Below are positions 14,745 to 50,875 of a stretch of DNA of 64,000 nt, piece after piece. The position numbers and the translations under genes are program-made. Position 1 is the stretch's first letter; each line of letters begins with the position of its first letter. The notes under the pieces are model-generated. The model saw only the letters and a program-made list of their open reading frames with translations. It did no database searches and was not told the origin of the DNA. The DNA comes from Candidatus Omnitrophota bacterium (GTDB lineage Bacteria; Omnitrophota; Gorgyraeia; 2-02-FULL-51-18): positions 86,253-150,252 of the forward strand of contig CAMDWQ010000001.1 in the NCBI GenBank assembly GCA_945877765.1, read 5' to 3'.

Positions 14745-16373
14745 GTGTTCCTTAGAATGTCGTGTGGTAAGATGAAGCCTTGTTGTGAAAAAAAAGACAG
14801 TTCAGTTGATACGATAGGGCCCCTTTTGATAGCTGCGTTGATACGTCCCCATCAAAAATTCTGGAAAGAATTTTTCCCTCTTATTTTTCTGCTTCTTTTG
14901 AATGCCTTTTTTCTAAATTATAATTTTTTGCGCGGGTTTATTTTTTATGACATGGGTGTTTTTTTGGATGCGAGCTGGCGCGTCACCATCGGTCAAAAAC
15001 CACACATCGATTTTTATTTCATTTCGGGCCCGCTGCATTTGTACATGAACGCGTTTTTCTTTAAATTGTTTGGATTTGGAAAGACAGCGCTTGTCTCACA
15101 TCTTGTTGTTGCCAGCACTTTGGCGATCTTGGCGACTTATTGGGCGGCGCGCGGGAAAATGCCTTGGACCGCGCGTTTTCTCGTCACGACGCTGACGATG
15201 GTCTCATTTTACTGGCCTGTCTCTCATCCCTGGTACAACCAATCGGCGCAGCTTTGGGGGCTCTTGGCAGCCGCGTTATGGATGCGGACGATTCCTTTTC
15301 AAAATTCTCGCCGTGCTTTTTGGATCAGCGCTCTCGGTGGCGCTCTTGCCATGATTTCTTTCATGACAAAAACGAATATCGGCTTCGCTTTTCTTTTCGC
15401 TTTCTTCGTCATGCTTCTTTTTTCTCCTCAAAGAAATCGCGCAATATTGGGCTATTTTCTCGGAGCTATTTTGGCGCTCGGGATCATCACCATTTTATTT
15501 ATTCCCGATTTCAAGCTATTTTTCGAGCAGTCTTTTTTGGAGTATGGTATTGGTCAACGAGGTCGTCTTTTAATCTTACTGAACCCGAGCTATTGGGCTC
15601 AGAATTACTACTGGCCGATTGTCCTTTTTACGGTTTTAGGAGCTTTTTTTTGTTTTAAAAATAATAAAGAACGAGTTGTGCTTTTCGCGGGATTTTGGTT
15701 GATTGCGGTTATCTCAATTTTTACGAGTTCCCTGTTTAACTTAAAAGGGGAATTTCCCCTGATAGGGATTTATGCGGCTCTTGGTTTTATTTTGTTGTAC
15801 GATGCGACGCCGGCAAATTCTTCATGGTTGAAAAATCTAAACCATTTTTCAAAAGCGGCTTTAACGGCGGTATGTTTTTTGCTTATCTTTGTTTGCGTGC
15901 AACAGAGTGTGGTGTTTGGCTGGTGGCGTAATCCTGAGTGGTATAATTACCCGCTCCATGCTGCGCCGCTTCGGGGACTGCGAAGCGATCAAACTCACAT
16001 TCGTACTTTAGATGGATTGGTGGAGTTTTTTGAGAAAGTCCCCAAGAATGAAACGCTTCTGATTTTGACTGACATGCAAGTTCTTTACCCTTTGACCGGC
16101 ATGGAGCCTTACCGTGGAGTTCCCATTGGTTTTGTCGTGGATCTTATTCCTCCGCCGGGAAAACCGCTGGATGCGTTAAAAAAACGTCTTCGGGAAGATC
16201 CGCCGGTATGGATTGTCACTCATAAAAGATTTACGCAGGCCAAAGAGCTTCTTGAAATCGTTCACTATTTAGGGTTTACGAAACAACTGGAAACCAATTA
16301 TATTTTTGCCAAGGAGATTGGTACGTGTGTCGTTTTGCGAAGGAATGATTTTAAAAAGGAATTGCTAAAATGA
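14745..16373 (+). CDS. polytopic integral membrane protein, probable GT-C-type glycosyltransferase (ArnT/PMT-like)
   Basis: 542 aa with at least 10 hydrophobic helices in the first two-thirds and a soluble C-terminal region. First gene of the sugar operon. Start uncertain. Confidence 0.55.
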   Translation: MFLRMSCGKMKPCCEKKDSSVDTIGPLLIAALIRPHQKFWKEFFPLIFLLLLNAFFLNYNFLRGFIFYDMGVFLDASWRVTIGQKPHIDFYFISGPLHLYMNAFFFKLFGFGKTALVSHLVVASTLAILATYWAARGKMPWTARFLVTTLTMVSFYWPVSHPWYNQSAQLWGLLAAALWMRTIPFQNSRRAFWISALGGALAMISFMTKTNIGFAFLFAFFVMLLFSPQRNRAILGYFLGAILALGIITILFIPDFKLFFEQSFLEYGIGQRGRLLILLNPSYWAQNYYWPIVLFTVLGAFFCFKNNKERVVLFAGFWLIAVISIFTSSLFNLKGEFPLIGIYAALGFILLYDATPANSSWLKNLNHFSKAALTAVCFLLIFVCVQQSVVFGWWRNPEWYNYPLHAAPLRGLRSDQTHIRTLDGLVEFFEKVPKNETLLILTDMQVLYPLTGMEPYRGVPIGFVVDLIPPPGKPLDALKKRLREDPPVWIVTHKRFTQAKELLEIVHYLGFTKQLETNYIFAKEIGTCVVLRRNDFKKELLK

Positions 16374-17089
16374 GTAAGCCAATTTTAGCGGATTGCACCC
16401 CCGTCATTCTAGCGGGGGGCTTGGGCAATCGTCTTCGCTCGGTTGTTTCGGACCGGCCCAAAGTGCTTGCCGAAGTAAACCAAAAGCCGTTTTTAACTTA
16501 CCTGCTGGAGCAGCTTCACCGAGCAGGTTTTCGGAAGACAGTTTTATGCACGGGCTATTTGGGAGAGCATATTGAAAAAAATTTCGGATCCCGTTACAAG
16601 CATCTAGCTCTTTTTTATTCTCAAGAAACCAGGCCGTTGGGTACTGCCGGAGCGCTTCGCCTGGCTTTGCCGCTAGTCCAAACAAAGTCAGCTATCATTC
16701 TTAATGGAGATTCTTTCTGCGGGGCTTCTTTAGACAAATTTTATTTCCACTATCAAAAAAGAAAAGTGAGCGCGGCGATAATCCTGGCGCACGTTTCAGA
16801 CGCGCGCCGTTTTGGAAAAGTCTTTGTGGACGCGCAAGGCAGAGTCCTTCATTTTCTGGAAAAGGATAAAAAAGAGGGGAGCGGGTGGATTAATGCCGGT
16901 ATTTATCTAGTGAAAAAGGAGCTTCTCCGGTCGATTCCTTCCGGAGGGCCTGTTTCGCTCGAAAAGCAGCTATTTCCCCAATGGATACAGCAGGGAATTT
17001 ATGGGCATCAAAGCCGTGCCCGTTTCATGGACATTGGCACGGCAGAATCGTATAATTGTGCGGATAATTTTTTTTCGCCCAAAAAATAG
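16370..17089 (+). CDS. sugar-1-phosphate nucleotidyltransferase (HddC-like)
   Basis: N-terminal VILAGGLGNRLRSVVSDRPKVLAEV NTP-transferase motif. 239 aa. Lies with an HddA-like kinase in the same operon. Confidence 0.8.
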   Translation: MSKPILADCTPVILAGGLGNRLRSVVSDRPKVLAEVNQKPFLTYLLEQLHRAGFRKTVLCTGYLGEHIEKNFGSRYKHLALFYSQETRPLGTAGALRLALPLVQTKSAIILNGDSFCGASLDKFYFHYQKRKVSAAIILAHVSDARRFGKVFVDAQGRVLHFLEKDKKEGSGWINAGIYLVKKELLRSIPSGGPVSLEKQLFPQWIQQGIYGHQSRARFMDIGTAESYNCADNFFSPKK

Positions 17090-17098
17090 GACACGCTT

Positions 17099-18058
17099 TT
17101 GAAAATACTGATCACCGGAATTACAGGCATGGTCGGCAGCCATCTGGCCGAGTATGTTCTTGCGGATCATCGGGACGTGGAAATTCATGGGTTGGTCCGC
17201 TGGAGAAGCCCGCTGACGGCGATTCAGGGGCTCGTGCCCCGGGTGACTCTTCATCAGGCGGAATTAAGAGATTTAAATTCTCTCATTCTTTTGTTAAAAA
17301 AAGTACAGCCGGACCGGATTTTTCATTTAGCGGCGCAATCGTATGTGCCGGCAAGTTTTGAAGCGCCTGCCGACACGCTGGCGACCAATGTGATCGGCAC
17401 CACCAATTTGTTGGATGCGGTAAGGCACGCGAAGCTGGATCCCAAAATTCATATTTGCAGTTCCTCGGAAGTGTATGGCCAGGTCACCCAGGAAGAAACG
17501 CCCATCAAAGAAACCAATGCGTTTCGTCCCGCCAGCCCTTACGCGGTTTCCAAAATCGGGGAAGATATGATCGCGCTGCAATATTTTTTATCGTATGGCG
17601 TGAAAACGATCCGCACGCGGATGTTTACGCATACAGGCCCCCGGCGCGGGGATGTTTTTGTTGAGAGCGCTTTTGCCAAACAAATCGCCCAGATTGAGGC
17701 GGGCGTTCGGCCAAATCCGATGAAAGTGGGAAATTTAAACAGCATACGGACCTTCGCGGATGTCCGAGATGCCGTCAAAGCTTATTGGCTCTTATTAGAA
17801 AAGTGTCCGGCGGGGGAAGTTTATAATATCGGCGGGGAAGAAACGATGAGCGTCGGCCAGATGCTGGAGATGCTCAAAAAAATGGCGCGTTGTCCTATCC
17901 AGCACGAGGTGGATGCGTCGCTGTTGCGGCCGTCGGATGTGACGCTGCAGATTCCTGATTCTTCAAAATTTCGCGCCGCGACCGGTTGGAAACCCGAGAT
18001 TCCTTTGCAGACTACGCTGCGCGATTTACTCGATTATCACCGGAACAGGATAAAATAA
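17099..18058 (+). CDS. NAD-dependent epimerase/dehydratase (GDP-mannose 4,6-dehydratase/Rmd-like)
   Basis: LITGITGMVGSHLAEYVL...EIHGLVRWRS closely matches the Gmd N-terminus LITGITGQDGSYLAEFLL...VHGI. 319 aa, SDR extended family. Confidence 0.8.
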   Translation: MKILITGITGMVGSHLAEYVLADHRDVEIHGLVRWRSPLTAIQGLVPRVTLHQAELRDLNSLILLLKKVQPDRIFHLAAQSYVPASFEAPADTLATNVIGTTNLLDAVRHAKLDPKIHICSSSEVYGQVTQEETPIKETNAFRPASPYAVSKIGEDMIALQYFLSYGVKTIRTRMFTHTGPRRGDVFVESAFAKQIAQIEAGVRPNPMKVGNLNSIRTFADVRDAVKAYWLLLEKCPAGEVYNIGGEETMSVGQMLEMLKKMARCPIQHEVDASLLRPSDVTLQIPDSSKFRAATGWKPEIPLQTTLRDLLDYHRNRIK

Positions 18059-18067
18059 AACTATAAA

Positions 18068-19078
18068 ATGCTGATCTCCAAAACCCCTTTTCGTATTTCT
18101 TTTTTTGGCGGCGGCACCGATTATCCCGCTTGGTATACGAAAGAGGGCGGCGTGGTTTTATCGACGACGATCGATAAGTATTGCTATCTCAACTGCCGTT
18201 TTTTACCCCCTTATTTTAATATCAAACACCGCATTGTCTGGTCCCACATCGAAACCGTGATGTCGATTAAAGAAATCTTGCATCCGGCGGTCCGCGAAGG
18301 GCTTCATTTTTTAGGATTTGACGACAGCATGGGTCTGGAGATTCATCATCAAGGGGATTTGCCTGCCAGGGCCGGCATGGGATCCAGCTCCGCTTTCGCG
18401 GTGGGGCTGATTAATGCGCTGACAAATCTCAAAGGCACCTCTATTGAAAAAAAATCACTGGCGTTGAAGGCCATTGAGCTGGAACGCGATATTTTAAAAG
18501 AACATGTCGGGTCTCAGGACCAGGTAGCTGCCGCTTATGGCGGATTGAATCTTATCTTATTTGACCGCCAGGGCGATTTTCGTGTGGAGCCGATGGCGCT
18601 TTCCACGACCCGTTCGTCGTCTCTGGAGTCTCACCTGATGCTTTTTTATACCGGGATGAATCGAATGGCTTCCGAGGTGGCTCAGGGGGTGATCGAAAAT
18701 ATTCCTCACAAGAAGCAGACTTTTTTAAAAATTCGGAATCTTGTGGACCAAGCGTCCACTCTTTTGAAAGGTTCCGGAGATCTGGACGATTTTGGACGCC
18801 TGCTTCATGAGGGATGGAATTTAAAATGCGATTTAAGCGCCGCGGTGACCAATGCGCGCATCGATGATATCTATCAACGGGCATTAAAACACGGCGCGTT
18901 GGGCGGGAAACTTTTAGGCGCCGGCGGCGCCGGATTCATGGTTTTTTATGTGCCTTTGGGAAAACAGGAAGAAGTCAAGCAGGCGCTCAAAGACCATCTG
19001 TATGTTTCATTCAAATTTGAAAACCACGGCAGTGTCGTGACCGAAAGCAAACAGGTTTGGAAAAGCAATGGCAACTAA
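18068..19078 (+). CDS. GHMP kinase, D-glycero-D-manno-heptose 7-phosphate kinase-like (HddA-like)
   Basis: PFRISFFGGGTDYPAWY N-terminus and GHMP motif PARAGMGSSSAFAVGLI. 336 aa. Confidence 0.8.
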   Translation: MLISKTPFRISFFGGGTDYPAWYTKEGGVVLSTTIDKYCYLNCRFLPPYFNIKHRIVWSHIETVMSIKEILHPAVREGLHFLGFDDSMGLEIHHQGDLPARAGMGSSSAFAVGLINALTNLKGTSIEKKSLALKAIELERDILKEHVGSQDQVAAAYGGLNLILFDRQGDFRVEPMALSTTRSSSLESHLMLFYTGMNRMASEVAQGVIENIPHKKQTFLKIRNLVDQASTLLKGSGDLDDFGRLLHEGWNLKCDLSAAVTNARIDDIYQRALKHGALGGKLLGAGGAGFMVFYVPLGKQEEVKQALKDHLYVSFKFENHGSVVTESKQVWKSNGN

Positions 19079-20054
19079 AACAAGCCCCGAGCTGGAGCTC
19101 AATCTCGCTTTATACAGGAAGCTCTATCTCATCCGAAAATCCGAACAGAAGATCATCGAATATTACCCTGAAAATGAAATGAAGACACCGATGCATATGT
19201 CGATGGGGCAGGAAGCGATCGCGGTGGGAGTCTGTGCCGCGTTGGGCGACCGGGGACAGATTTTTTCTTCTTATCGCAGTCATGCCGCTTTTTTGGCCAG
19301 AACCGGCAACGTGGAAATGTTTTTTATGGAGATGTACGGACGCGGAGGCACATTGACCGGTGGCAAGGCGGGATCCATGCATTTGGCAAGCCCTTCGGAG
19401 GGTGTTCTTTGTTCATCCGCTATTGTCGGCAGCGCGATCCCTCTGGCGGCAGGAGCGGCGTTTGCGAATCGATACAAGAAAAATGATTTACTGGCTTGCG
19501 TATTTTTTGGCGACGGGGCGTTGGAAGAAGGAATTTTCTGGGAAACTTTAAATGCGGCGAGCGCCATGAAACTGCCCGTTTTATTGGTGTGTGAAGATAA
19601 CGGCTTTGCCGTGCATACATCCAAGCAAGCGCGGCACGGTTTTCGTTCCATCACGGAAATTGTTCGTCATTACCAGTGCCATGTTTTTCAGGAAGATACG
19701 ACGGATGCCGAAAAAATTTATCAGTTAACGCGGCAGGCGGTCACGGCAATGCAGCGTGATCCGCGTCCCGTGTTTTTACATCTTCAATGTTACCGTTATT
19801 TGGAGCATGTCGGGATCAACGAAGATTTTGATGCCAATTACCGCCCGCGCGAGGACTATGAGAATTGGTTGAAGAGAGACGCGGTGGCGCTCGGGCGAAA
19901 AAAACTTCTCGAAAGCGGTTTGGCGGAAGCCGATATTTCCCGGGAAGAGCGGAAGCTTGACGAGGAGATTGATCGTTGCGTTCAAAAAGCCAAGAACGCG
20001 CCGTTTCCCCAAAAGCAGGAACTGTATCACGGAGTTTTCCATGAGACAAATTAG
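19068..20054 (+). CDS. ThDP-dependent dehydrogenase E1 component, alpha subunit (pyruvate/acetoin dehydrogenase E1-alpha family)
   Basis: ThDP-binding GDG...N region (VFFGDGALEEGIFWETLNAASAMKLPVLLVCEDNGFA). 328 aa. Confidence 0.85.
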   Translation: MATKTSPELELNLALYRKLYLIRKSEQKIIEYYPENEMKTPMHMSMGQEAIAVGVCAALGDRGQIFSSYRSHAAFLARTGNVEMFFMEMYGRGGTLTGGKAGSMHLASPSEGVLCSSAIVGSAIPLAAGAAFANRYKKNDLLACVFFGDGALEEGIFWETLNAASAMKLPVLLVCEDNGFAVHTSKQARHGFRSITEIVRHYQCHVFQEDTTDAEKIYQLTRQAVTAMQRDPRPVFLHLQCYRYLEHVGINEDFDANYRPREDYENWLKRDAVALGRKKLLESGLAEADISREERKLDEEIDRCVQKAKNAPFPQKQELYHGVFHETN

Positions 20055-21081
20055 TTTCTGCGAAGCGCTCAACGAAGCGATGTTTCAGGAGATGGAGCGG
20101 GATCCGTCGGTTTTTGTGTATGGCATCGGTGTGCCCGATCATAAGAAAATTTTTGGTTCCACCGCGCGGTTGTCCGAGCGCTTTGGGGAACAGCGCTGTT
20201 TTGACACGCCTCTTTGCGAAGAAGCGATGACGGGGTTTGGTTTGGGCGCCGCGATCAACGGCCTTCGGCCCATTCATATCCATATCCGGATGGATTTTCT
20301 TCTGCTGGCCATGAACCAGCTGGTCAACATGGTTTCCAATTTTGTTTATTCCACCAATGGGACGCTAAAAGCGCCGCTGGTGATTCGCGTGGTGGTGGGC
20401 AGAGGCTGGGGCCAGGGCTATCAGCACAGTAAATCACTCCATTCTTATTTTGCGCATATTCCCGGCTTGAAAGTCGTGGTTCCGACGACGCCCAAAGATG
20501 CCAAAGGTCTTCTGGCATCCGCCATCCGTGACAACAATCCGGTCGTTTTTATCGAGCACCGCTGGCTTTATTGGGCGGTCGGTGAAGTGCCGGAAGAGCC
20601 TTTTACGATTCCTATCGGCGAAGCGAATATTATAAAAGAAGGCAGCGATCTGACGGTGGTTGCCGTTTCATGGATGAATATTGAAGCGCTGAAAGCGGCC
20701 GAAATTCTCGCCAAACGAGGCGTTCACATTGAGGTCATCGATCCCAGAACACTTTCTCCTTTAGACGATACGCTGATTATCCAATCGGTGAAAAAAACGG
20801 GCCATTGTTTGGTGGCTGACAATGATTGGGTGGATTGCGGTTTTGGCGCGGAAGTGGCGGCACGTGTTTCTGAAAAATGTTTTGGTCATTTGAAATCACC
20901 CGTCAAACGGATTGGGTTCGCGTTTACCCCTTGCCCGACGGTGAGAGTTTTGGAAAATGAGTTTTATCCTAATGCGGTGACGATTATCCGGTCGATTGAA
21001 AAGACGCTGGGGCTTTCTCCGACGGATATTTCCGACGAAGATTTTTACAGCCATGAAAATCGTTTTCAGGGGCCTTTCTAA
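20041..21081 (+). CDS. ThDP-dependent dehydrogenase E1 component, beta subunit (transketolase-like)
   Basis: Transketolase pyrimidine-binding and C-terminal domains (ISFCEALNEAMFQEMERDPSVFVYG...). Start placed at the internal ATG at 20041, which overlaps the E1-alpha stop. Confidence 0.85.
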   Translation: MRQISFCEALNEAMFQEMERDPSVFVYGIGVPDHKKIFGSTARLSERFGEQRCFDTPLCEEAMTGFGLGAAINGLRPIHIHIRMDFLLLAMNQLVNMVSNFVYSTNGTLKAPLVIRVVVGRGWGQGYQHSKSLHSYFAHIPGLKVVVPTTPKDAKGLLASAIRDNNPVVFIEHRWLYWAVGEVPEEPFTIPIGEANIIKEGSDLTVVAVSWMNIEALKAAEILAKRGVHIEVIDPRTLSPLDDTLIIQSVKKTGHCLVADNDWVDCGFGAEVAARVSEKCFGHLKSPVKRIGFAFTPCPTVRVLENEFYPNAVTIIRSIEKTLGLSPTDISDEDFYSHENRFQGPF

Positions 21082-21740
21082 TGACGTTCACGCTGTTTAT
21101 TCTCATGCGCAACGAGATTGAAGCGCTCCGCGTGATTTTGCCGAGGATCAAAAAAGAATGGGTGGATGAAATTCTTTTGCTGGATGGCGGTTCGACCGAC
21201 GGCAGCATCGAATACGCCGAATCCGTGGGCTTTAAAGTGACGCGGCAAAAAAGCAAAGGCCTGCTGGAGGGCACCAAGGAAGGCCATCGGATGGTCCGCA
21301 CCGATTATGTGATCCAATTTACACCCGACAACAACATGATCCCTGAAAAAATCCCCGAATTAACGGCAAAGGTGAGGGAAGGGTATGACATGGTGATCGT
21401 TTCGCGCTATTTAAAAGGCGCTAAGAGTCATGATGATAATGTGATTACCGGTTTTGGCAATTGGATGTTCACGACCATGGTCAATGTGCTTTTTGGCGCG
21501 CATTACACGGATGTGCTGGGTTTTTACAGAGCTTTCCGCACCAACCTTTTTGAAGAACTTGGATTTGAAATCAAACTTTCCGTGGATACGCAACTTTGTA
21601 TCCGCTGTACGAAAAAGAAATTGAGAGTGGCTGAAATTCCAGGCGACGAACCCAAAAGAATCGGCGGCGCGTCCAGCCGCAGTATTTTAAAAAACGGTTG
21701 GATTGAGTTGACAACGATCTTGGGAGAATTTTTCGGATGA
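21081..21740 (+). CDS. family 2 glycosyltransferase
   Basis: GT-A fold signatures (LLLDGGSTDGS, acidic DxD-like region). 219 aa. Confidence 0.65.
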   Translation: MTFTLFILMRNEIEALRVILPRIKKEWVDEILLLDGGSTDGSIEYAESVGFKVTRQKSKGLLEGTKEGHRMVRTDYVIQFTPDNNMIPEKIPELTAKVREGYDMVIVSRYLKGAKSHDDNVITGFGNWMFTTMVNVLFGAHYTDVLGFYRAFRTNLFEELGFEIKLSVDTQLCIRCTKKKLRVAEIPGDEPKRIGGASSRSILKNGWIELTTILGEFFG

Positions 21741-22945: not shown

Positions 22946-24666
22946 GAGTCGCCGACTACATCGCCAAATTTCTTGTCCGGGAGGGAGTGCGCGATATTTT
23001 CGTTCTGACAGGTTACGGAGCGATGTATTTGAATGATGCGATTACGCTGCAGCCCGAGCTTAAATATTATTGCGCGCGCAACGAAGCCGCGGCGCCGATG
23101 ATGGCCGAAGCTTACGCGCGCGTGAAAAAAAGTTTGGGTGCTGTCTGTTTGACCAGCGGTCCCGGGAGCACGAATGCCATTCCGGGTTTGGCGGAAGCTT
23201 GGGTGGATTCGGCCCCGATTCTTATTTTCTCCGGCCAAGTTCAACGCAGCCACACGACGTATGCCGCAGGGCTTCCGGGCCTGCGAACTTTTGGCACCGC
23301 CGAAATCAATATTGTTCCGATCGTGCGGACACTCACCAAATATGCGGAAATGGTCATGGAAGCCGAATCGATCCGCTATCATTTAGAAAAAGCAGTTTAT
23401 TTAGCGACCCACGGCCGGCCGGGACCGGTGTGGTTGGATATCCCGATGGATATTCAAAGCGCTGAAATTGATGAAAATAATCTTCGGCCTTTTATCGCGC
23501 CTGAGGAATCTTTTTCTGCCTCGGATCTGGAAGCTGGTGTAGAAAAAACAGCCAAGCTTTTACTGTCTTCGAAAAGGCCGCTGCTTCTGGGCGGCCATGG
23601 AATACGGCTGGGAAGCGCTATCGAAGAATTCCGCGCTTTATCCGAAAAACTTCAAATCCCTTTTATTCTTTCGCGTTTCGCTCAAGATATTATTCCTTAT
23701 TCGCATCCGCTCAACATGGGCCAGGCCGGCATCAAAGGCGTGCGTTATTGCGGAGCCGTGATGAAATCCGCGGACGTCGTGCTTTCGCTGGGCTGCCGCA
23801 TGGCGGTCCAATTGGCGGGTCATCGTTTTGATGCGTTTGCACCGGATGCCAAAATTGTCATGGTGGATATCGAAGAGGATGAATTAAAAAAACCCGGTGT
23901 CCCGCTGCATCTGGCGGTGCACGCCGATGTGAAAAAGTTCCTGCATAAATTATTAAAATATCTTCCATCGGCATCGTCTGCCGTCGGAGAAAAAAAATGG
24001 CTGGAGGATTGCGCCCAGCTAAAAAAGGATCATCCGATGGTCACGGCTGATTTTAAGAGAAACCCGATAGATCTCTATTATTTCATGTCGAGGCTGGACG
24101 CGCTTTCCGGATCCGAGCATCTGTTTACGACCGATGCCGGGTCCAACTATTACGCGGGAGGGCAGGTGTATCATTTTGAAAAAGGTCAGCGTGAGATTAC
24201 TTCCGGCACTTTCGCGGCGATGGGGCTGAGCATCCCCTTGGCGATAGGAGCGGCGATCGCGGCGAAGGACTCGCAGATTCTCGCGGTCACCGGCGACGGA
24301 TCTCTGGAGCTTAATATTCAGGAACTCAAAACCATTTCCTATTACAAGCTGAACATAAAACTTTTTGTCATCAACAACGGCGGTTATCTTTCGATGAGAA
24401 ATTGGCAGGACGGTTTTTTTGAGGGCCGCCGTATCGGGTCGGATGATGAAACGGGCGCTGAATCACTGAATTTGAAAAAAGTAGCGGAAGCTTTTGACTT
24501 AAAATATGAATGCATCGCGCGCTGCGAAGCGATTGATGACCAATTAAAAAAAATCATGAAAGAAAAAGGGCCCTTGTTTGTGGAAGTCATCTGCGACAAT
24601 CGCCAAAAGATCATCGAGCCGATCAAGGATTTTTCATCGCAGAAAGCGTCTTCGGCATGCAAATAA
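22942..24666 (+). CDS. ThDP-binding acetolactate-synthase-like enzyme (possible YerE-like sugar C-branching enzyme)
   Basis: N-terminal ThDP pyrimidine domain (MRVADYIAKFLVREGVRDIFVLTGYGAMYLNDAI), central and C-terminal ThDP domains with GDGS...NN motif (VTGDGSLELNIQELKTI...INNGGY). 574 aa. Confidence 0.8.
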   Translation: MRVADYIAKFLVREGVRDIFVLTGYGAMYLNDAITLQPELKYYCARNEAAAPMMAEAYARVKKSLGAVCLTSGPGSTNAIPGLAEAWVDSAPILIFSGQVQRSHTTYAAGLPGLRTFGTAEINIVPIVRTLTKYAEMVMEAESIRYHLEKAVYLATHGRPGPVWLDIPMDIQSAEIDENNLRPFIAPEESFSASDLEAGVEKTAKLLLSSKRPLLLGGHGIRLGSAIEEFRALSEKLQIPFILSRFAQDIIPYSHPLNMGQAGIKGVRYCGAVMKSADVVLSLGCRMAVQLAGHRFDAFAPDAKIVMVDIEEDELKKPGVPLHLAVHADVKKFLHKLLKYLPSASSAVGEKKWLEDCAQLKKDHPMVTADFKRNPIDLYYFMSRLDALSGSEHLFTTDAGSNYYAGGQVYHFEKGQREITSGTFAAMGLSIPLAIGAAIAAKDSQILAVTGDGSLELNIQELKTISYYKLNIKLFVINNGGYLSMRNWQDGFFEGRRIGSDDETGAESLNLKKVAEAFDLKYECIARCEAIDDQLKKIMKEKGPLFVEVICDNRQKIIEPIKDFSSQKASSACK

Positions 24667-25487
24667 AGCAGCTTCAACAAAAAGCGGCCTGGGTGAGAAG
24701 ACAGGTGCTGGAAGCCATCGCGGCCAAAGGAAAAGGGCATATTGGGGGGACTTATTCTTGCACGGATGTTCTGGTAGCGCTTTATTATGCCGGAATTCTG
24801 CGGATCGATCTGAAAAATCCGCGTCAGCCGGACCGCGACCGTTTTATTTTAAGCAAAGGCCACGCCTGCCTGGCGCTTTATTCTATTTATCTGGATCAGG
24901 GAATTTTCACTCCTGAAAAATTTGCGGAATATGGAGTCGACGGGGGAAGTTTGGGGGGACAGCTGGACATCCACATTCCCGGCGCTGAATACAATACCGG
25001 CTCGCTCGGCCACGCGCTTGGCATCGGCTGCGGAATGGCGCTGGCGGCCAAAATGGATGAGAAAAAATATAAAACCTATATTTTGATGGGAGACGCCGAA
25101 TGCCTGGAATGGTCCGTATGGGAATCGGTGATGTTTGCCTCTGAACATGGGCTGAATAATTTGATAGGAATTGTGGATCGCAATCGTCTTTCGGTCACGG
25201 ATGTCCTGGACGACGAACATGTGTTTAGAAATTTTAAAGAGAAGCTTCAAATGTTTGGCTGGAACGCGCAAGTGATCAACGGGCACTCTTTCGAAGAAAT
25301 TTTAAGTGCCTTTGAAGCGGCTAAAAATTCCGACAAACCTTTCATGCTATTGGCCAATACGATTAAAGGAAAAGGCATCTCTTTCATGGAAAACGGGATC
25401 AAGTGGCATCATTCGGTGCCAACACCGGCGGAGCTAGACAAGGCCCGCGCAGAGCTCAAAAAAAATGAAGACGCGCTGTCATGCTAA
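24657..25487 (+). CDS. transketolase, N-terminal (ThDP-binding) subunit of a split transketolase
   Basis: GHIGGTYSCTDVLVALYY, GHACLALYS and GSLGHALGIGCGMA transketolase motifs. 276 aa. Confidence 0.85.
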   Translation: MQIKQLQQKAAWVRRQVLEAIAAKGKGHIGGTYSCTDVLVALYYAGILRIDLKNPRQPDRDRFILSKGHACLALYSIYLDQGIFTPEKFAEYGVDGGSLGGQLDIHIPGAEYNTGSLGHALGIGCGMALAAKMDEKKYKTYILMGDAECLEWSVWESVMFASEHGLNNLIGIVDRNRLSVTDVLDDEHVFRNFKEKLQMFGWNAQVINGHSFEEILSAFEAAKNSDKPFMLLANTIKGKGISFMENGIKWHHSVPTPAELDKARAELKKNEDALSC

Positions 25488-26422
25488 AACTCGCCGAACT
25501 TGATATCCGGGACGCGTTTTTTGATGAGATCTATAGAATCGCCGCCGCGGACAAAAATGTCGTGTTTTTGACCGGCGATATGGACGCCTTTTCACTCCGC
25601 AAATTTAAACAGGATTTTCCTTCACGTTTTATCAATACCGGAGTCGCCGAACAGAATATGATCTGTGTGGCGTCCGGCCTTGCCGCCTGCGGGAAAAAAG
25701 TTTTTGTGTATGGGATCAACACCTTTGTGTCGATGCGGTGTTTTGAGCAGATCAAGATCAATATTTGCAGCATGAATCTTCCGGTGGTGATCATCGGCGC
25801 GGGGGCAGGGTTCTCTTTTGGGTTTGACGGCCCGACGCATCATGGCACGCAGGACGTGGCGGTGATGCGCGCCTTGCCGGAAATGGAAATTTGGAACCTG
25901 GCGGATGCCGGAATTGCCGCCGCTTGCGCGAAATTAGCCGCCAAAACAACTCATCCCATGTATATTCGCCTCGACAAGGGAAAATTTCCTGATTTTTATC
26001 AACCAGAAGAAAATATATCTGCCGGTTTTAAGCTATTAAAACCTCTTCAAAAAATAAATCTTGTCAGCACCGGTTTTATGACCCAGCAGGCGATGCAAAC
26101 CGCCCAAGCATTGGAACTTCAGTCGGTCTCCGTCGGGGTCGTCGATGTTTCACGACTCAAACCTTTAAATCAAGATTTAATCAAACAACTGATTGCTTCA
26201 TCCCATAAGATCTTCACGCTGGAAGAACATTGCCTGACGGGCGGCCTGGGATCTATTTTAAATGACGCGCTGGCTTCCCACAAAAACTCTATCACGCTTG
26301 AGCGGCTGGCGATCCCAGACCTTCAGTTTTTAGCTTACGGCAGCCGCGAATGGTTTCATCAAAGCAACGGGTTGGATGTTCAAAGCATCACCAACCGTAT
26401 CCAAAAATTGATTTCACGATGA
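25481..26422 (+). CDS. transketolase, C-terminal (pyrimidine-binding plus C-terminal) subunit
   Basis: FINTGVAEQNMICVASGLA and GPTHHGTQDVAVMRALP. 313 aa. Overlaps the N-terminal subunit gene. Confidence 0.85.
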   Translation: MLKLAELDIRDAFFDEIYRIAAADKNVVFLTGDMDAFSLRKFKQDFPSRFINTGVAEQNMICVASGLAACGKKVFVYGINTFVSMRCFEQIKINICSMNLPVVIIGAGAGFSFGFDGPTHHGTQDVAVMRALPEMEIWNLADAGIAAACAKLAAKTTHPMYIRLDKGKFPDFYQPEENISAGFKLLKPLQKINLVSTGFMTQQAMQTAQALELQSVSVGVVDVSRLKPLNQDLIKQLIASSHKIFTLEEHCLTGGLGSILNDALASHKNSITLERLAIPDLQFLAYGSREWFHQSNGLDVQSITNRIQKLISR

Positions 26423-27354
26423 ACAACGAGATCCAGTGCCTGGGTTTATCGGAATTTGCCTCTCTTTTTGGATGCAAGGCGGAGGAGATTCCTCAAGATT
26501 GCGCGCAGCTTATCGCCGAAAATGATTTTCGCTATCGTGTGGCAGAAGGGAAGGAATATGAGGAAATTCTTCAAGGAGTTCTCCATAAAATTGATTCCGG
26601 CGGATTTTCAATTGCCGGGGAAGAACGCCTTCCCAATTGGGAAAAGGGATGGGGCGAAAATCTGGAAGCTTTTTTAAAAACTAAAAATATTCTGGAGCTC
26701 GTCCCAAAATATTTCAGGCCCGGCCTGCCGCTGAGGCTTTTTCAGCAGTACATTTTGCCGCTGGATCCTAATTTTGAGATCAACTGGTATTCTGTTTTCA
26801 GGCTGTGGCTTTTTAAAACTTACTTCAAGAGTAGCGGCGCTATTTATGAATTCGGCTGCGGCTCCGGTTTCAACCTTCCGGTGTTAAGCAGCCTTTATCC
26901 GGACAGGAAAGTATTTGGTTTGGACTGGTCCCAAGCATCGGTGGATATCGTCAACCAAATGGCCAAAGCCTGCCGCTGGAATATGGAAGGCCGGCGTTTT
27001 GATTTTTTTAAACCCGATAAAAGTTTTATTCTCGAGCCGTCGAGCATTGTCACCACGATCGGAGCTTTAGAACAAACCGGCCAAAAATACATGGATTTTT
27101 TGGATTATCTAGTGGATTCCAAGCCGGCGCTGGTGGTGCATGCCGAACCTACGGTCGAGTGGTATGATAAAAACAATCCCGTGGATGAGGCGGCGATACG
27201 ATTTCACAAAACACGGCGCTACTGGGAAGGATTTATCGACAAACTTCGCCAACTGGAAAAACAGGGCCGTGTGCAGGTCATAAAAACCAAAAGATCGTAT
27301 TTTGGAAGCCTGTACGTGGAAGGTTATTCTCAAACGATTTGGAAATCCGTTTAA
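26419..27354 (+). CDS. class I SAM-dependent methyltransferase
   Basis: YEFGCGSGFNLPVLS motif I and VFGLDWS. Start placed at the internal ATG at 26419, which overlaps the previous stop. Confidence 0.6.
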   Translation: MNNEIQCLGLSEFASLFGCKAEEIPQDCAQLIAENDFRYRVAEGKEYEEILQGVLHKIDSGGFSIAGEERLPNWEKGWGENLEAFLKTKNILELVPKYFRPGLPLRLFQQYILPLDPNFEINWYSVFRLWLFKTYFKSSGAIYEFGCGSGFNLPVLSSLYPDRKVFGLDWSQASVDIVNQMAKACRWNMEGRRFDFFKPDKSFILEPSSIVTTIGALEQTGQKYMDFLDYLVDSKPALVVHAEPTVEWYDKNNPVDEAAIRFHKTRRYWEGFIDKLRQLEKQGRVQVIKTKRSYFGSLYVEGYSQTIWKSV

Positions 27355-27371
27355 AAAAAAGGGCCCCGACG

Positions 27372-28154
27372 ATGGATCTTGGGATCAAAGGAAAATACGC
27401 GCTGGTGACGGGGGGAAGTCACGGCATCGGCTTGGCGGCCGCACGGGCGCTTGCGTCCGAAGGTTGCCATGTGGCAATTTGCTCTCGGGACCCCAAGCGC
27501 CTTTCCACGGCTTTAAAAATTTTAAAAAAAGAGGGCGTGAAGGTTTTGGCGGTCCAGGCGGATGTGTTGGTGGCCGAAGATATTATCAACGCCACCAAAT
27601 TCATCGATAAATCTTGGAAGAAAATCGATATCCTGATTAATAACGTGGGTGGGGGCGGCCGCTGGGGCAGCGAGTCGATGGAAGAAACCTCTGAAAAGGT
27701 GTGGAGCGATGTGTTTGATAAAAACGCGACTGCTGCGGTGCGTTTTACGCGCTGGGCGATTCCACATATGCGGCGGCAGAAATGGGGCCGTATTGTCACG
27801 GTTGCTTCGGTTCACGGGAAAGAAGGCGGCGGCCGTCCGTGGTTTAACATGGCGAAGGCGGCGCAAATCAGCCTGATGAAATGCCTGTCTCTGAAGACGG
27901 ACCTGGTGCGGGATGGGATCACATTTAACACGGTGGCACCCGGCGGTATTCTGATCCCGGACACCGGCTGGGATGAAGAAAGAAAAAAGAATCCGAAGTT
28001 ATTTAAAAAAAAGGTGCTGGAAAATTTTCCGCTCGGCCGGTTGGGCACGCCGGAGGAAGTGGCTGGGGTCCTTTTGTTTTTATGCTCAAAAAATGCAAGC
28101 CTTGTGAACGGGGCGTGCATCACGGTGGACGGCGGCGAAAGTAAAAGTTTCTAA
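27372..28154 (+). CDS. short-chain dehydrogenase/reductase (SDR)
   Basis: ALVTGGSHGIGLAAARAL (TGxxxGxG) and the YxxxK region. About 260 aa. Confidence 0.85.
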   Translation: MDLGIKGKYALVTGGSHGIGLAAARALASEGCHVAICSRDPKRLSTALKILKKEGVKVLAVQADVLVAEDIINATKFIDKSWKKIDILINNVGGGGRWGSESMEETSEKVWSDVFDKNATAAVRFTRWAIPHMRRQKWGRIVTVASVHGKEGGGRPWFNMAKAAQISLMKCLSLKTDLVRDGITFNTVAPGGILIPDTGWDEERKKNPKLFKKKVLENFPLGRLGTPEEVAGVLLFLCSKNASLVNGACITVDGGESKSF

Positions 28155-28162
28155 AAAATCGA

Positions 28163-29161
28163 ATGATCCCTGAAAAAATCTTAAATTCTTTAAAAAATTC
28201 AAATGCGCTGGTGACGGGCGGCACGGGTTTAATCGGCCGGCAGGTCGTAGAACTCTTGGAAGAGGCCGGCGCGCATGTCCGCATTGTTTCTCTAGATCGC
28301 CTGAGGGTGAGCGGGAAAGCGGAACACGTTTATGGGGACCTGACGGATTTCTCTTTTTGCCGGGACACGGTCAAAGGAATGGATTATGTGTTTCATTTGG
28401 CCGGCATCAAGGGCTCGATTGAAGTGACCAAGGCCCGGCCGGCAAGTTTTTTTGTGCCGCTTTTGATGATGAATACGAATCTTCTGGAAGCCTGCCGCCT
28501 CCAAGGCGTCAAAAGGACGGTTTATACCAGTTCCATCGGCGCTTATCCCAGCGCTGAAATTTTTCGTGAAGACGATGACCACGCGGACGCGCCGCCGATG
28601 GATTTTTTCCCGGGGTGGGCCAAAAGAATGGCGGAGCTTCAGTTAAAATCCTATCAACTCGAATACGGCCATGAAAATTTCGCGGTGGTCCGGCCTTCCA
28701 ATGTTTACGGTCCCGGGGATAATTTTGATCCCGAAAACGCTATGGTGATTCCGTCTCTGATCGCGCGTGTTTTTCGCAAGGAAAATCCCGTCATGATTTG
28801 GGGGGACGGCTCGGCGGTGCGTGATTTTGTGTATAGCCGTGACGCGGCCGAGGGCGTCATTCTCGCCCTTATCCACGGCACCGCGCCGGGTTTTGTGAAT
28901 ATAGGCAGCGGCGAGGGAGTTAGCATCCGTGGGCTGGTTGAAACCCTGCGAACGGTCACCCCTTTTGAATACCAATTTGATATCGACAAATCTTCCGGTT
29001 TTCCACGGCGCGTCATGGATATCACGCGAGCCCGGCAGAAAATCGGTTACGCGCCCAGCGTCTCATTGGCGGAAGGGCTGAAGAAGACCTGCGATTGGTT
29101 TATGGCCCACAAAGATGAATATCTTTTAAGAAAAAATTATTTTGCCGATGCCGCTTCCTGA
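28163..29161 (+). CDS. NAD-dependent epimerase/dehydratase (GDP-L-fucose synthase-like extended SDR)
   Basis: ALVTGGTGLIGRQVVELL, YPSAE... and the PSNVYGPGD region. 332 aa. Confidence 0.8.
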   Translation: MIPEKILNSLKNSNALVTGGTGLIGRQVVELLEEAGAHVRIVSLDRLRVSGKAEHVYGDLTDFSFCRDTVKGMDYVFHLAGIKGSIEVTKARPASFFVPLLMMNTNLLEACRLQGVKRTVYTSSIGAYPSAEIFREDDDHADAPPMDFFPGWAKRMAELQLKSYQLEYGHENFAVVRPSNVYGPGDNFDPENAMVIPSLIARVFRKENPVMIWGDGSAVRDFVYSRDAAEGVILALIHGTAPGFVNIGSGEGVSIRGLVETLRTVTPFEYQFDIDKSSGFPRRVMDITRARQKIGYAPSVSLAEGLKKTCDWFMAHKDEYLLRKNYFADAAS

Positions 29162-30140
29162 TTTAAAAAAATCAAAAATCGTTGTCGCCGGAGCCTCGGG
29201 GTTCATCGGCTCTAATTTGGTGCGGTATTTTTTGAATCAAAATTACTCGGTCCGGGGGATTTTACGTCAGCGGCCTCCCGTGGTTGTCGATGACCGTATC
29301 GAATATGTTCACGCGGATCTTGCGACCAAGGAGGGCTGCCGCCTGGCGGTTCGTGACGCGGACTATCTGTTTATGTGTGCGGCTCAGACGGCCGGCGCGG
29401 CGGTAATGGCCGCCGACCCGCTCTCGCAAGTGACCCCGAATGTGCTGATTAATACACAACTTTTACAAGCCGCCTATGAGGCGCGGATCAAAAAAACCGT
29501 TTTTATCTCCAGCAGCGCCGCCTATCCTCCCACAGGCATTACCCCGGTCAAGGAGGAGCAGATGTTCGACGGTGATCCGCATGAAGTTTATTTTAGCGTG
29601 GGCTGGATGAAGCGCTATGCCGAAATTCTCTGCAAGATTTACGCTCAAAAAGTTCCCAACCCCATGCCGGTCGCGGTGGTGCGGCCATCCAATATTTACG
29701 GGCCTTTCGATAAATTTGATTTTAAAACTTCCCATGTCACCGCCGCGCTCTTACGGCGCGTCGTCGAACGCCACCAACCCCTGGAAGTATGGGGAGACGG
29801 TTCGGATATCCGGGATTTGATTTTCGTGGATGATTTTATAGAAGGAATGATGAAAGTATTTCATGCGCCCGACCCTTACGTTGCGGTCAATCTAGCATCC
29901 GGTCAAGGCACCACTGTTCGGCAAATCCTTGAGACTTTGCTGGAGGTCGATGGTTATAAAGACGCGAATATTCGTTATCTTAAGGATAAACCCCGAACGA
30001 TTCCGGCACGTTTTGTCGATACAACATTAGCTGAAAAAAAATTTGGATTTAAACCGGCCCACTCTCTCAAAGAGGGCTTTAAAAAAACAATTTCCTGGTA
30101 TCGGATGAACCCATATGGAGGTGACCGTGTCCGCGCTTGA
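29142..30140 (+). CDS. NAD-dependent epimerase/dehydratase (second extended SDR)
   Basis: VVAGASGFIGSNLVRYF and PSNIYGPFD. 332 aa. Confidence 0.8.
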   Translation: MPMPLPDLKKSKIVVAGASGFIGSNLVRYFLNQNYSVRGILRQRPPVVVDDRIEYVHADLATKEGCRLAVRDADYLFMCAAQTAGAAVMAADPLSQVTPNVLINTQLLQAAYEARIKKTVFISSSAAYPPTGITPVKEEQMFDGDPHEVYFSVGWMKRYAEILCKIYAQKVPNPMPVAVVRPSNIYGPFDKFDFKTSHVTAALLRRVVERHQPLEVWGDGSDIRDLIFVDDFIEGMMKVFHAPDPYVAVNLASGQGTTVRQILETLLEVDGYKDANIRYLKDKPRTIPARFVDTTLAEKKFGFKPAHSLKEGFKKTISWYRMNPYGGDRVRA

Positions 30141-30660
30141 AGTAGAAAAAACAGATTTGGACGGGGTGCTTTTGATTAAACCGTCGACGCATTTTAAAGA
30201 TTTCCGGGGTGAATATGTCGAGACGTATAATGAAAAACTTTATCAAGAAGCCGGGATTGACCTCCATTTTGTGCAGGATGATATTTCGACATCCAAAAAA
30301 AATGTGCTGCGCGGTATCCACGGGGACCAGAAGACGTGGAAGCTGGTCACCTGTCTTTACGGCGAGTTTTATATGGTTGTCGTTAACTGGGATCCGGCCT
30401 CCCCTCAATATAAAAAATGGACCTCGTTTGTTCTTTCCGATAAAAACCGGCATCAAGTTTTGATTCCGCCTAAATTCGGCAACGGGCATCTGGTTTTGTC
30501 GGAACAAGCAGTGTTTCATTACAAACAATCCACCTACTATGACCGCGCGGGTCAATTTACACTCCGTTGGAATGATGCTGATTTAAACCTTCGCTGGCCT
30601 ATCCAGAGCCCTATCTTGTCCGAAAGAGACGGCGGAATACCCACCATGTCGTCTGCCTAA
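30115..30660 (+). CDS. RmlC-like cupin, nucleotide-sugar 3,5-epimerase (dTDP-4-dehydrorhamnose 3,5-epimerase family)
   Basis: LLIKPSTHFKDFRGEYVETY..., RGIHGDQKTWKLVTCLYGEFYMVVVNW and PPKFGNGHLVLSEQAV match the RmlC family. 181 aa. Confidence 0.85.
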   Translation: MEVTVSALEVEKTDLDGVLLIKPSTHFKDFRGEYVETYNEKLYQEAGIDLHFVQDDISTSKKNVLRGIHGDQKTWKLVTCLYGEFYMVVVNWDPASPQYKKWTSFVLSDKNRHQVLIPPKFGNGHLVLSEQAVFHYKQSTYYDRAGQFTLRWNDADLNLRWPIQSPILSERDGGIPTMSSA

Positions 30661-50868: not shown

Positions 50869-50875
50869 TTTGTCC

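Follow-up and report, generated by a model that had tools for sequence, protein, structure and literature searches.

Why does an operon for a nucleotide-activated sugar encode three different systems of thiamine diphosphate (ThDP)-dependent carbon-carbon bond enzymes? The question is raised by a block of 16 genes in a 64,000-nucleotide stretch of DNA, here referred to as the window, from a Candidatus Omnitrophota bacterium (assembly GCA_945877765.1, contig CAMDWQ010000001.1, forward-strand positions 86,253 to 150,252). To our knowledge, ThDP-dependent branching of keto sugars has so far been described for only a handful of O-antigen and antibiotic sugars, each of them with a single ThDP enzyme. 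We compared the block with 11 related loci, collected by a one-genome-per-species scan and by exact-protein look-ups, and found the same gene set to be common to these 11 independent loci from at least four bacterial phyla, which supports a dedicated nucleotide-sugar operon, or cassette, and not juxtaposed primary-metabolism genes. As for its product, we consider it moderately probable that the operon makes and exports one GDP-activated 6-deoxy-heptose, which would be branched by the ThDP enzymes and carried on a lipid to a glycosyltransferase of the GT-C fold. The novelty, supported in its core by sequence comparison, would lie in the GDP-heptose scaffold, in the combination of three branching classes and in lineages without known sugars of this kind; the product itself is predicted. 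The genes are as follows.

G01, 14772-16373 (+): membrane glycosyltransferase with a probable GT-C fold (GT39/PMT_2/ArnT-like); weak PMT_2 match
G02, 16370-17089 (+): sugar-1-phosphate nucleotidyltransferase, HddC/ManC-like; putative GDP-heptose synthase (Pfam NTP_transferase, 3e-30)
G03, 17099-18058 (+): extended short-chain dehydrogenase/reductase (SDR), GDP-heptose 4,6-dehydratase-like (Pfam GDP_Man_Dehyd)
G04, 18068-19078 (+): GHMP sugar kinase, HddA/WcbL-like, predicted heptose-7-phosphate kinase
G05, 19068-20054 (+): E1 alpha subunit of an alpha-keto-acid-dehydrogenase-type ThDP enzyme (alphaKADH2 class; Pfam E1_dh, 4e-53)
G06, 20041-21081 (+): E1 beta subunit (Pfam Transket_pyr and Transketolase_C)
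G07, 21081-21740 (+): small soluble family 2 glycosyltransferase (GT2) of 219 aa, probably of the polyprenyl-phosphate glycosyltransferase type (AglJ/DPM1/ArnC-like; Pfam GT2)
G08, 21737-22945 (+): class I/II pyridoxal-phosphate aminotransferase of the aspartate/aromatic aminotransferase type (AspAT/ArAT; Pfam Aminotran_1_2, 2e-67)
G09, 22942-24666 (+): YerE/JanthE-like three-domain ThDP carboligase, here called acetolactate-synthase-like (ALS-like)
G10, 24657-25487 (+): N-terminal (PP-domain) subunit of a non-canonical split transketolase-family enzyme (TK-N; Pfam Transketolase_N)
G11, 25481-26422 (+): C-terminal (Pyr and C domains) subunit of the split transketolase-family enzyme (TK-C; Pfam Transket_pyr and C)
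G12, 26419-27354 (+): class I S-adenosylmethionine (SAM) methyltransferase-like protein with a YEFGCGSG motif; weak Pfam Methyltransf_25 match
G13, 27372-28154 (+): classical SDR (Pfam adh_short), candidate branch ketoreductase with a YerF-like role
G14, 28163-29161 (+): extended SDR, GDP-fucose-synthase-like (reductase/epimerase)
G15, 29148-30140 (+): second extended SDR, like GDP-fucose synthase (Fcl) and GDP-mannose-3,5-epimerase
G16, 30115-30660 (+): RmlC-fold 3- or 3,5-epimerase of the GDP-4-keto-heptose type (Pfam dTDP_sugar_isom)

The 16 consecutive co-directional plus-strand genes (14772-30660) of a first-pass annotation were found again by an open reading frame (ORF) scan and by independent gene calls from identical metagenome contigs (Logan ERR5863105 and two others). 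Most junctions do overlap as that annotation described (11 of 15), but by 1-26 nt and not by 1-20 nt, and the remaining four are gaps of 8-17 nt; in gene order the distances are -4, 9, 9, -11, -14, -1, -4, -4, -10, -7, -4, 17, 8, -14 and -26 nt. The first gene more likely starts at ATG 14772 or 14826 than at GTG 14745, and three starts were corrected (19957 to 20041, 26350 to 26419 and 27339 to 27372). All earlier domain assignments were borne out by Pfam and NCBIfam; the count of four ThDP enzymes becomes three ThDP systems in five genes (E1 alpha/beta, the ALS-like enzyme, and the split transketolase (TK) with its N and C subunits). Only the RmlC-like G16 reached an NCBIfam equivalog cut-off, the other proteins being clear family members and not equivalogs of named enzymes. 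Rfam and tRNA scans gave no matches. Two hairpins bound the block:

14689-14722 (+): terminator-like hairpin 5' of the operon, 13-bp stem then T-run; second-best plus-strand site in 13800-31200
30819-30838 (+): terminator-like hairpin 3' of the operon, 8-bp stem with 6 GC pairs and a T8 tail, the feature with its T-tract reaching 30848; best-scoring plus-strand site

The first closes the preceding dCTP-deaminase unit and the second stands upstream of an ORF of 3189 aa. Since the two best hairpins directly flank the block, we read the operon as a single delimited transcription unit, from which the 3189-aa ORF is separate.

Predicted heptose enzymes and three ThDP systems

From which sugar would the operon start? 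In all three of G03, G04 and G16, relatives acting on heptoses outscored their hexose counterparts. The closest relative of known structure to G03 is the GDP-D-glycero-D-manno-heptose 4,6-dehydratase of Campylobacter jejuni (7US5, 273 bits, against 161 bits for Escherichia coli Gmd); those of the kinase G04 are WcbL (4USM/4USK, 139 bits), 3K85 and HddA (4N3O), and those of the epimerase G16 are the C. jejuni GDP-heptose epimerases 7AN4, 7ANG, 8DB5 and 8DCO (141-143 bits, against 117 bits for true RmlC). With 158 bits, G16 also passed the cut-off of TIGR01221 (155.75). The GDP-heptose machinery proposed earlier is thus well supported, these three proteins being closest to GDP-heptose enzymes of Campylobacter and Burkholderia. 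For the nucleotidyltransferase G02, the top NCBIfam matches, both below cut-off, were mannose-1-phosphate guanylyltransferase (166 bits) and HddC (144 bits, cut-off 300), and G04 scored 133 bits against HddA (cut-off 600). G14 matched NCBIfam Fcl with 150 bits and, in the PDB, Fcl and GalE-like proteins; by both comparisons G14 and G15 are Fcl-like. From homology and gene context we infer a scaffold in which GDP-D-glycero-manno-heptose would be converted to GDP-6-deoxy-4-keto-heptose.

This enzyme set matches those of C. jejuni (HddA/HddC, DdahA/B/C, MlghB/C, Cj1427-1430) and of the Burkholderia pseudomallei capsule (WcbK/L/M/N, GmhA), and what the operon has in common with GDP-6-deoxy-heptose pathways is a putative heptose kinase of the GHMP type, a putative guanylyltransferase, a 4,6-dehydratase, an RmlC-fold epimerase and Fcl-like reductases (PMC10680097). 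The Campylobacter and Burkholderia pathways, however, are without ThDP enzymes, a class-I aminotransferase and GT-C transfer, whereas the operon has the first two and probably the third, and unlike in those pathways carboligases are predicted to capture the 4-keto intermediate.

Three ThDP classes are known or proposed to form tertiary alcohols on keto sugars (PMC12247030). First, YerE-like enzymes give short to long branches, as in yersiniose, erwiniose, caryophyllose and gastriose. Second, heterodimeric E1 enzymes of the alphaKADH2 class are established to transfer a C2 (acetyl) unit of pyruvate onto ketones at C3 or C4, with aldgarose, kibdelomycin (KbDH-alpha/beta), avilamycin, paulomycin and trioxacarcin as examples. 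Third, for split-gene transketolases hydroxyacetyl branching is only proposed; all 13 of 13 candidates are from Streptomycetes and none has been characterised (PMC12247030). The operon has a putative member of each class.

The E1 pair scored below the housekeeping cut-offs (G05 242 bits against TIGR03182, cut-off 394; E1 beta 306 bits against the pyruvate dehydrogenase (PDH) E1 beta subfamily, cut-off 321), and no E2 or E3 component (lipoyl, 2-oxoacid_dh or Pyr_redox domains) was found among the window ORFs scanned against Pfam. In six related loci (L004, L084, L086, L088, L091 and L092), the E1 pair is directly adjacent to the 4,6-dehydratase gene. An E1 pair also lies beside an extended-SDR/oxidoreductase gene of unassigned family in a further locus (L094, where the pair follows the extended-SDR gene) and in Azospirillum. 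A heterodimeric E1 without E2/E3, encoded beside a sugar dehydratase, is likewise what is found in the alphaKADH2 sugar systems; those examples make secondary-metabolite sugars, mostly of antibiotics (PMC12247030), whereas here the pair occurs in glycan cassettes with a heptose and with two further ThDP classes. The closest annotated cultured homolog of E1 beta (51% identity) belongs to a glycan locus on plasmid AZO_p6 of Azospirillum lipoferum 4B, and since Thermus AcoB-like proteins are 47% identical, these values do not discriminate a branching from a PDH or acetoin E1. The Azospirillum locus (L095, NC_016588.1, 42-49 kb) consists of a nucleotidyltransferase-GmhB fusion, an oxidoreductase, E1 alpha, E1 beta and a DegT aminotransferase, with GT2, GT41 and sulfotransferase genes also in the glycan locus. 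Such a sub-cassette in a cultured bacterium offers a possible experimental handle on E1-type heptose branching.

For the ALS-like enzyme G09, the top PDB match was JanthE (8RPH, 318 bits), which is YerE-like and catalyses the coupling of ketones with 2-oxo acids (PMC12188165), followed by E. coli IlvB (255 bits) and PpYerE (234 bits), with plant acetohydroxyacid synthase (AHAS) also below JanthE. G09 is about 31-33% identical to both JanthE and PpYerE, and by its 234 bits PpYerE is no nearer to G09 than AHAS is. In AHAS, Arg377 (Arabidopsis thaliana numbering) of the RFDDR motif holds the acceptor keto acid by its carboxylate; this motif reads RMAVQ in G09 and RLAIP in JanthE, so that Asp376 and Arg377 are both absent from G09. 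A neighbour-joining tree of 94 sequences, rooted on plant AHAS, placed a monophyletic G09 clade inside a radiation of ThDP enzymes from polysaccharide loci that contains JanthE, with PpYerE just outside it and then IlvB; the affinity to YerE suggested earlier is thus confirmed as a place within the YerE/JanthE-like radiation, with AHAS as outgroup. Moreover, G09 scored 351 bits against TIGR00118 (cut-off 538), it is encoded with nucleotide-sugar 4,6-dehydratase and ketoreductase genes, and a Pfam scan showed no AHAS small (ACT-domain) subunit, IlvC or IlvD in the operon.

A sister clade of G09 is found in Streptomyces sp. NRRL F-6131 (L017, 7670-19901) and Kitasatospora misakiensis (L016), where the ALS-like enzyme is again paired with a split TK. 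The Streptomyces cluster encodes an ATP-grasp ligase, a condensation domain, an adenylation domain fused to a 2-hydroxyacid dehydrogenase, a PhyH dioxygenase, a semialdehyde dehydrogenase and a PGK-like kinase, with no sugar genes. We considered these two loci as a characterised precedent for sugar branching by an ALS-TK pair and rejected them, the former cluster being of the ATP-grasp/nonribosomal peptide synthetase type without sugar genes; they resemble an uncharacterised small-molecule pathway that shares the same ThDP pair.

The role of the aminotransferase G08 is linked to that of G09. Its top PDB match is the ArAT/AspAT of Pyrococcus horikoshii (267 bits), its Schiff-base Lys and alpha-carboxylate Arg motifs are kept, and in 14 distinct loci, which belong to two clades of the ALS-like enzyme, an ortholog adjoins the ALS-like gene, in 13 of them immediately upstream. 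Because of this conserved Arg and the tight pairing, G08 more probably supplies a 2-oxo-acid donor from an amino acid than aminates the sugar, and the aminated product suggested by the first-pass annotation is to that extent disfavoured.

For the split TK, the top PDB matches are the two subunits of the Carboxydothermus hydrogenoformans split TK (6YAK, 195 bits for G10; 6YAJ, 164 bits for G11), and in NCBIfam G11 scores nearly equally as TK (178 bits) and as 1-deoxy-D-xylulose-5-phosphate synthase (DXS; 170 bits). We aligned cassette copies from eight related loci with the C. hydrogenoformans split TK, human TK and E. coli DXS. In human numbering, the window enzyme has His110 replaced by Gln, Ser345 by Phe, His416 by Gly and Arg474 by Lys, residues that we take to correspond to E. 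coli His100 (which binds the donor C1-OH), Ser385, His461 and Arg520; three of the four phosphate-binding residues are thereby changed and the donor-binding His is also lost. The Glu preceding Asp424 is lost as well. His37, His77, His258, Arg318, the cofactor Glu, Asp424 and the His473-equivalent are kept, and the ThDP motif of G10 reads GDA. The change of His416 to Gly is present in all cassette TK copies and that of Arg474 to Lys in all except the second pair of locus L005, while His110 to Gln and Ser345 to Phe occur in most primary orthologs (L085 has Glu in place of Phe); the second TK pairs deviate, L007 keeping His and L005 having Ile. Human TK and the bona fide C. hydrogenoformans split TK retain the canonical residues. 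As the ThDP-binding and cofactor-activating residues are kept, the cassette TK is probably an active ThDP enzyme with altered substrates. A two-subunit TK in a sugar-modifying cluster, with a ketone as proposed acceptor, is also known from miharamycin and amipurimycin, but the reviewed split-TK candidates are all from Streptomycetes (PMC12247030), whereas the operon TK is non-actinobacterial and carries defined substrate-site substitutions. The cassette is a natural test case for the proposed sugar branching by split transketolases, the four replacements at His110, Ser345, His416 and Arg474 being defined.

Transketolases normally take aldehyde acceptors, and this raises another explanation, in which the TK and/or the E1 pair would use aldehydes to give an octose or nonose, or would supply sedoheptulose-7-phosphate for the backbone, with no branching of a ketone. 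Many cassette hosts (candidate phyla radiation (CPR) bacteria and Omnitrophota) are metabolically reduced, and loci L005 and L007 each carry two TK pairs, which would suit this explanation. However, the loss of His416, Ser345, Arg474 and His110 makes a plain TK supplying sedoheptulose-7-phosphate unlikely, and no oxidase that could give the C7 aldehyde for chain extension was identified, although the SDRs could do so. We regard this explanation as rather improbable.

The same gene set in other loci

The related loci come from Chloroflexota (L004, L006), Nealsonbacteria (L007), Curtissbacteria (L092), Omnitrophota (L085, which is CP070780, and L088) and unclassified genomes such as L084 and L091, the unclassified hosts having 1-8 Mb. 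Shared cassette proteins are 42-79% identical to those of the window, with E1 alpha and the nucleotidyltransferase more divergent (27-54%). By gene, the values are 59-79% for the dehydratase G03 (8 of the 11 loci), 45-64% for the GHMP kinase, 42-69% for E1 beta (nine loci), 54-69% for the ALS-like enzyme, 44-64% for TK-N, 44-61% for TK-C, 52-68% for G14 (8 of 11), 43-59% for G15 (9 of 11) and 49-73% for the epimerase G16. For the ALS-like protein, more than 100 homologs with 55-83% identity were found in metagenomes and in metagenome-assembled genomes labelled Omnitrophota, Chloroflexota and Curtissbacteria.

Could this be a chance juxtaposition of ilvB, tkt, pdhAB and aspC with a sugar operon? 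The domain architectures do match those of the housekeeping enzymes, and E1 beta comes near the PDH E1 beta cut-off (306 against 321 bits). Against it stand the synteny across phyla, the start/stop codon overlaps, the non-canonical active-site residues of G09 and the TK, the lack of IlvN, IlvC, E2 and E3 in the Pfam scans of operon and window ORFs, and the scores of all five ThDP proteins, which lie below the NCBIfam cut-offs for IlvB, Tkt and PdhAB. The two outcomes that the first-pass annotation had named as fatal to its idea are hence not what we found: the gene set is kept in 11 loci from several phyla, and sub-cut-off scores, the tree position of G09, the TK residue changes and the conserved synteny set the ThDP enzymes apart from primary-metabolism orthologues. 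A chance origin is largely refuted and in our view highly improbable.

Gene order varies among the loci within limits. ALS, TK-N and TK-C are adjacent in that order in every locus. L004 reads GmhA, GmhB, epimerase, dehydratase, E1 alpha, E1 beta, ALS, TK-N, TK-C, kinase and two SDRs; L086 has GmhB, GmhA, E1 alpha, E1 beta, dehydratase and kinase; and L007 carries kinase, GmhA and nucleotidyltransferase. GmhA and GmhB both lie within the L004, L086 and L092 cassettes and GmhA within that of L007, while nucleotidyltransferase-GmhB (HAD) fusions occur in L088, L091 and L092, as in Azospirillum. In nine of the 11 loci and in the window, the TK is followed by a reductase and a methyltransferase, in two non-homologous versions. 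The first, an aldo-keto reductase (AKR) with a conserved 250-aa TylF-like protein, is present in L004, L005, L007, L084, L086, L088, L091 and L092; the second, G12 with G13, is present in the window, L007 and L090, so that L007 has both. G12 has three orthologs in L007, one of which is joined to the TK-C C-terminus, and is also represented in L090; orthologs of G13 were found in the same two loci (60-63% identity), in the same position after TK and methyltransferase. Gene order across the loci suggests four modules: dehydratase with E1 alpha/beta; an optional aminotransferase with the YerE-like enzyme; split TK followed by reductase and methyltransferase; and SDR, epimerase and SDR.

The 250-aa protein (for example L086 14615-15448) has no Pfam match and is 56-67% identical across phyla. 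It is encoded in L004, L005, L007, L084-L086, L088, L091 and L092, usually after the AKR gene. Its motifs FGTRWGxNLALF and FDFDLYEPT presumably resemble those of TylF-type methyltransferases. Neither this protein nor its AKR partner was found in the window, and membership of G12 in the same family was rejected after comparison.

Proteins fused in some loci bear on whether the block is one pathway. Besides TK-C with G12 (L007), there are fusions of AKR with RmlC (L088), of the second extended SDR with GT2 (L084) and of the GHMP kinase with nucleotidyltransferase and methyltransferase (L090), and the last three tie their parts to sugar-nucleotide chemistry. It is conceivable that one operon houses two pathways, an ordinary GDP-6-deoxy-heptose route and a separate ThDP/aminotransferase route to a small molecule or non-carbohydrate substituent; a related ALS-TK pair does occur in a non-sugar cluster, and G08 is not of the sugar (DegT) type. 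But in all 11 loci, across phyla, the two halves have not separated; they are interleaved in varying orders and bridged by fusion proteins, and the operon has no ligase or acyltransferase by Pfam scan, nor an exporter. Two pathways in one operon are therefore very unlikely.

The proposed pathway, its delivery step and the strongest rival

How would the finished sugar leave the cytoplasm? G01 scored 23.7 bits against Pfam PMT_2 (cut-off 26.1), contains at least seven strongly hydrophobic segments, and its homologs in Omnitrophota are named GT39. An AlphaFold model from an alignment of 29 homologs reached a predicted local distance difference test score (pLDDT) of 88.5 and a predicted template modelling score (pTM) of 0.88, and in a fold search the best 25 PDB matches (to E 0.044) were all GT-C enzymes, among them STT3, ArnT (template modelling score 0.52-0.55), ALG9/12, AftA, PglB and Pmt4; by this model, G01 has the GT-C fold. 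The top NCBIfam matches of G07, all below cut-off, were AglJ, dolichyl-phosphate hexose transferase and ArnC. G07 is 35% identical (E 8e-42) to a GT2 of L091 that adjoins a PMT_2 gene, and in that locus GT2, PMT_2 and a Polysacc_synt flippase gene precede the cassette. BLASTP showed no similarity of G01 to the L091 PMT_2 protein, their likeness being at the level of fold only. In L094, about 7 kb separate a G01 homolog from the extended SDR-E1 alpha-E1 beta block downstream of it, and GT2 genes directly follow the homolog. With the modelled fold, these data indicate that G07 and G01 may deliver a single sugar via polyprenyl phosphate in the manner of ArnC/ArnT. A polyprenyl-phosphate-type GT2 with a GT-C-fold enzyme is the arrangement of the ArnC/ArnT and GtrB/Gtr systems, which decorate with single sugars; in the operon, putative counterparts of the two stand alongside sugar-nucleotide genes.

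The pathway that we propose would run as follows. Heptose-7-phosphate would be formed by GmhA encoded elsewhere and phosphorylated at C1 by G04, the 7-phosphate would be removed by GmhB, likewise encoded elsewhere, and G02 would then give GDP-D-glycero-manno-heptose. G03 would convert this to GDP-6-deoxy-4-keto-heptose, of which G16 would epimerise C3 and/or C5. The keto sugar would next serve as electrophile. E1 alpha/beta would most likely add a C2 (acetyl) unit from pyruvate at C4, its orthologs adjoining the dehydratase in six cassette loci. G09 would add the acyl unit of a 2-oxo acid made by G08 from an amino acid, and G10/G11 a further two-carbon unit. Each addition would leave a new ketone, which could be the next acceptor or could be reduced (G13, G14, G15) and methylated (G12). 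Finally, G07 would load the finished sugar onto polyprenyl phosphate and G01 would transfer it to an extracytoplasmic acceptor. Since the operon, by Pfam scan, lacks a ligase, an acyltransferase, E2/E3 and an AHAS small subunit, the carbon-carbon bond is the only coupling chemistry that it encodes.

Several points weigh against this proposal. G02 and G04 fall far under the equivalog cut-offs for HddC and HddA. GmhA (SIS) and GmhB (HAD), whose absence from the operon had been noted before, were not found anywhere in the 64-kb window, either by Pfam on ORFs of at least 150 aa and the 94-aa ORF 13645-13929 or by tblastn with the GmhA and GmhB of L086. The search for their genes, fruitless here, succeeded inside the related cassettes L004, L007, L086, L088, L091 and L092, and both are presumably encoded elsewhere in this genome. 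No flippase gene was identified in the operon. After branching at C4, no 4-keto group would be left for the Fcl-like reductases, whose assigned roles are guesses. The sister-clade ALS-TK pair can serve small molecules, and by analogy the pair here may build a donor and not touch the sugar. Finally, ketone acceptance in vitro is still undemonstrated in several YerE-like enzymes and in all TKs of sugar clusters (PMC12247030).

The strongest rival takes up this analogy. In it, G09 alone would touch the sugar, and E1, split TK and G08 would build a long, functionalised 2-oxo-acid donor out of small metabolites, which G09 would join to GDP-6-deoxy-4-keto-heptose in a single step, leading to a sugar of the caryophyllose or erwiniose type. 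Long-branch sugars do use donors made by accessory enzymes: the donor of ErwE in erwiniose synthesis, 4-hydroxy-2-oxopentanoate, comes from a BphI/BphJ-type aldolase and dehydrogenase pair (PMC9306805). L091 has such an ErwI/ErwJ-like pair (DmpG/DmpF) between its TK and SDR-epimerase modules, which ties the ALS-like clade of G09 to the logic of erwiniose and counts as a precedent for the proposed pathway as well. The occurrence of the sister-clade pair in a non-sugar small-molecule cluster and the nature of G08 as an amino-acid/2-oxo-acid enzyme point the same way. On the other hand, the E1 alpha/beta genes go with the dehydratase gene rather than with the aminotransferase-ALS-TK block, characterised alphaKADH2 enzymes act directly on keto sugars with pyruvate (PMC12247030), and the fusions of TK-C with methyltransferase and of AKR with RmlC tie tailoring to sugar-nucleotide steps. 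We hold this rival to be possible but unlikely.

In comparison with the YerE, ErwE, MygE and JanthE systems, the operon shares a three-domain ThDP enzyme near a nucleotide-sugar dehydratase, an accessory supply of the 2-oxo-acid donor and a subsequent ketoreductase (PMC9306805, PMC12247030). The acceptors named for those systems are CDP-3,6-dideoxy-4-keto-hexoses (PMC9306805), whereas here the scaffold would be a GDP-heptose; furthermore, a split TK follows every member of the G09 clade, and the donor supplier would be an aminotransferase and not an aldolase, except in L091. In a literature search that did not cover the survey of Krug et al. 2024, we found no link of any branching ThDP class to GDP-heptose and no report of all three together. 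The earlier statement that no characterised pathway has this combination holds in that search, with the reservation that each ThDP class singly was already known or proposed for branching of keto sugars (PMC12247030). All three classes on a GDP-heptose scaffold thus appear undescribed.

If the branched-heptose pathway is right, it implies that Omnitrophota, Chloroflexota and CPR bacteria display branched monosaccharides of higher carbon number, a new family, at their surfaces. The cassette also offers new carboligases that may accept ketones, as sought by biocatalysis for tertiary alcohols (PMC12247030, PMC12188165). A bolder form, to which we give only a low probability, is an iterative acyloin assembly line, in which the three ThDP enzymes would act in sequence to make a multiply C-branched sugar of C11 or larger, delivered by polyprenyl phosphate and the GT-C enzyme to the surfaces of Omnitrophota-like and CPR bacteria. 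This would be a class of monosaccharide not yet seen and the first sugar branching by a transketolase-family enzyme outside actinomycetes, with the giant proteins encoded nearby as possible acceptors.

Neighbouring genes and cassette variants

Three giant plus-strand ORFs lie downstream of the operon, at 30907-40476 (3189 aa), 41299-47784 (2161 aa) and about 56566-64000 (at least 2478 aa, open at the 3' end). Neither of the complete ORFs matched Pfam, and both begin with an N-terminal hydrophobic segment; they could be surface proteins and, by proximity alone, candidate acceptors. Genes of toxin-antitoxin type stand between the giant ORFs, namely a YhaV-family toxin (40520-40978, minus strand) and an AbiEii nucleotidyltransferase toxin whose 197-aa partner lies upstream (47955-49282, minus strand).

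Upstream, an IS21-family element (9872-11963, minus strand) encoding an IstA transposase of 475 aa and an IstB ATPase of 238 aa lies about 3 kb from the operon, and the related cassette L084 is broken up by DDE transposases. Both fit with a horizontal spread of the cassette.

Some cassettes carry additional genes. L085 (13471-18543) and L088 (2062-4044) have added radical SAM enzymes, B12-binding and SPASM types included, a DegT aminotransferase and a second ALS-like gene; these variants suggest further C-methylation or rearrangement of the same sugar family. NUDIX genes are present in several cassettes, and their proteins could be sugar-nucleotide hydrolases. In the window itself, at 49759-51847 (plus strand), about 19 kb downstream of the operon, a membrane acyltransferase (Acyl_transf_3) is encoded with an extended-SDR epimerase/dehydratase, and the two genes may form a separate unit for glycan O-acylation or sugar modification.

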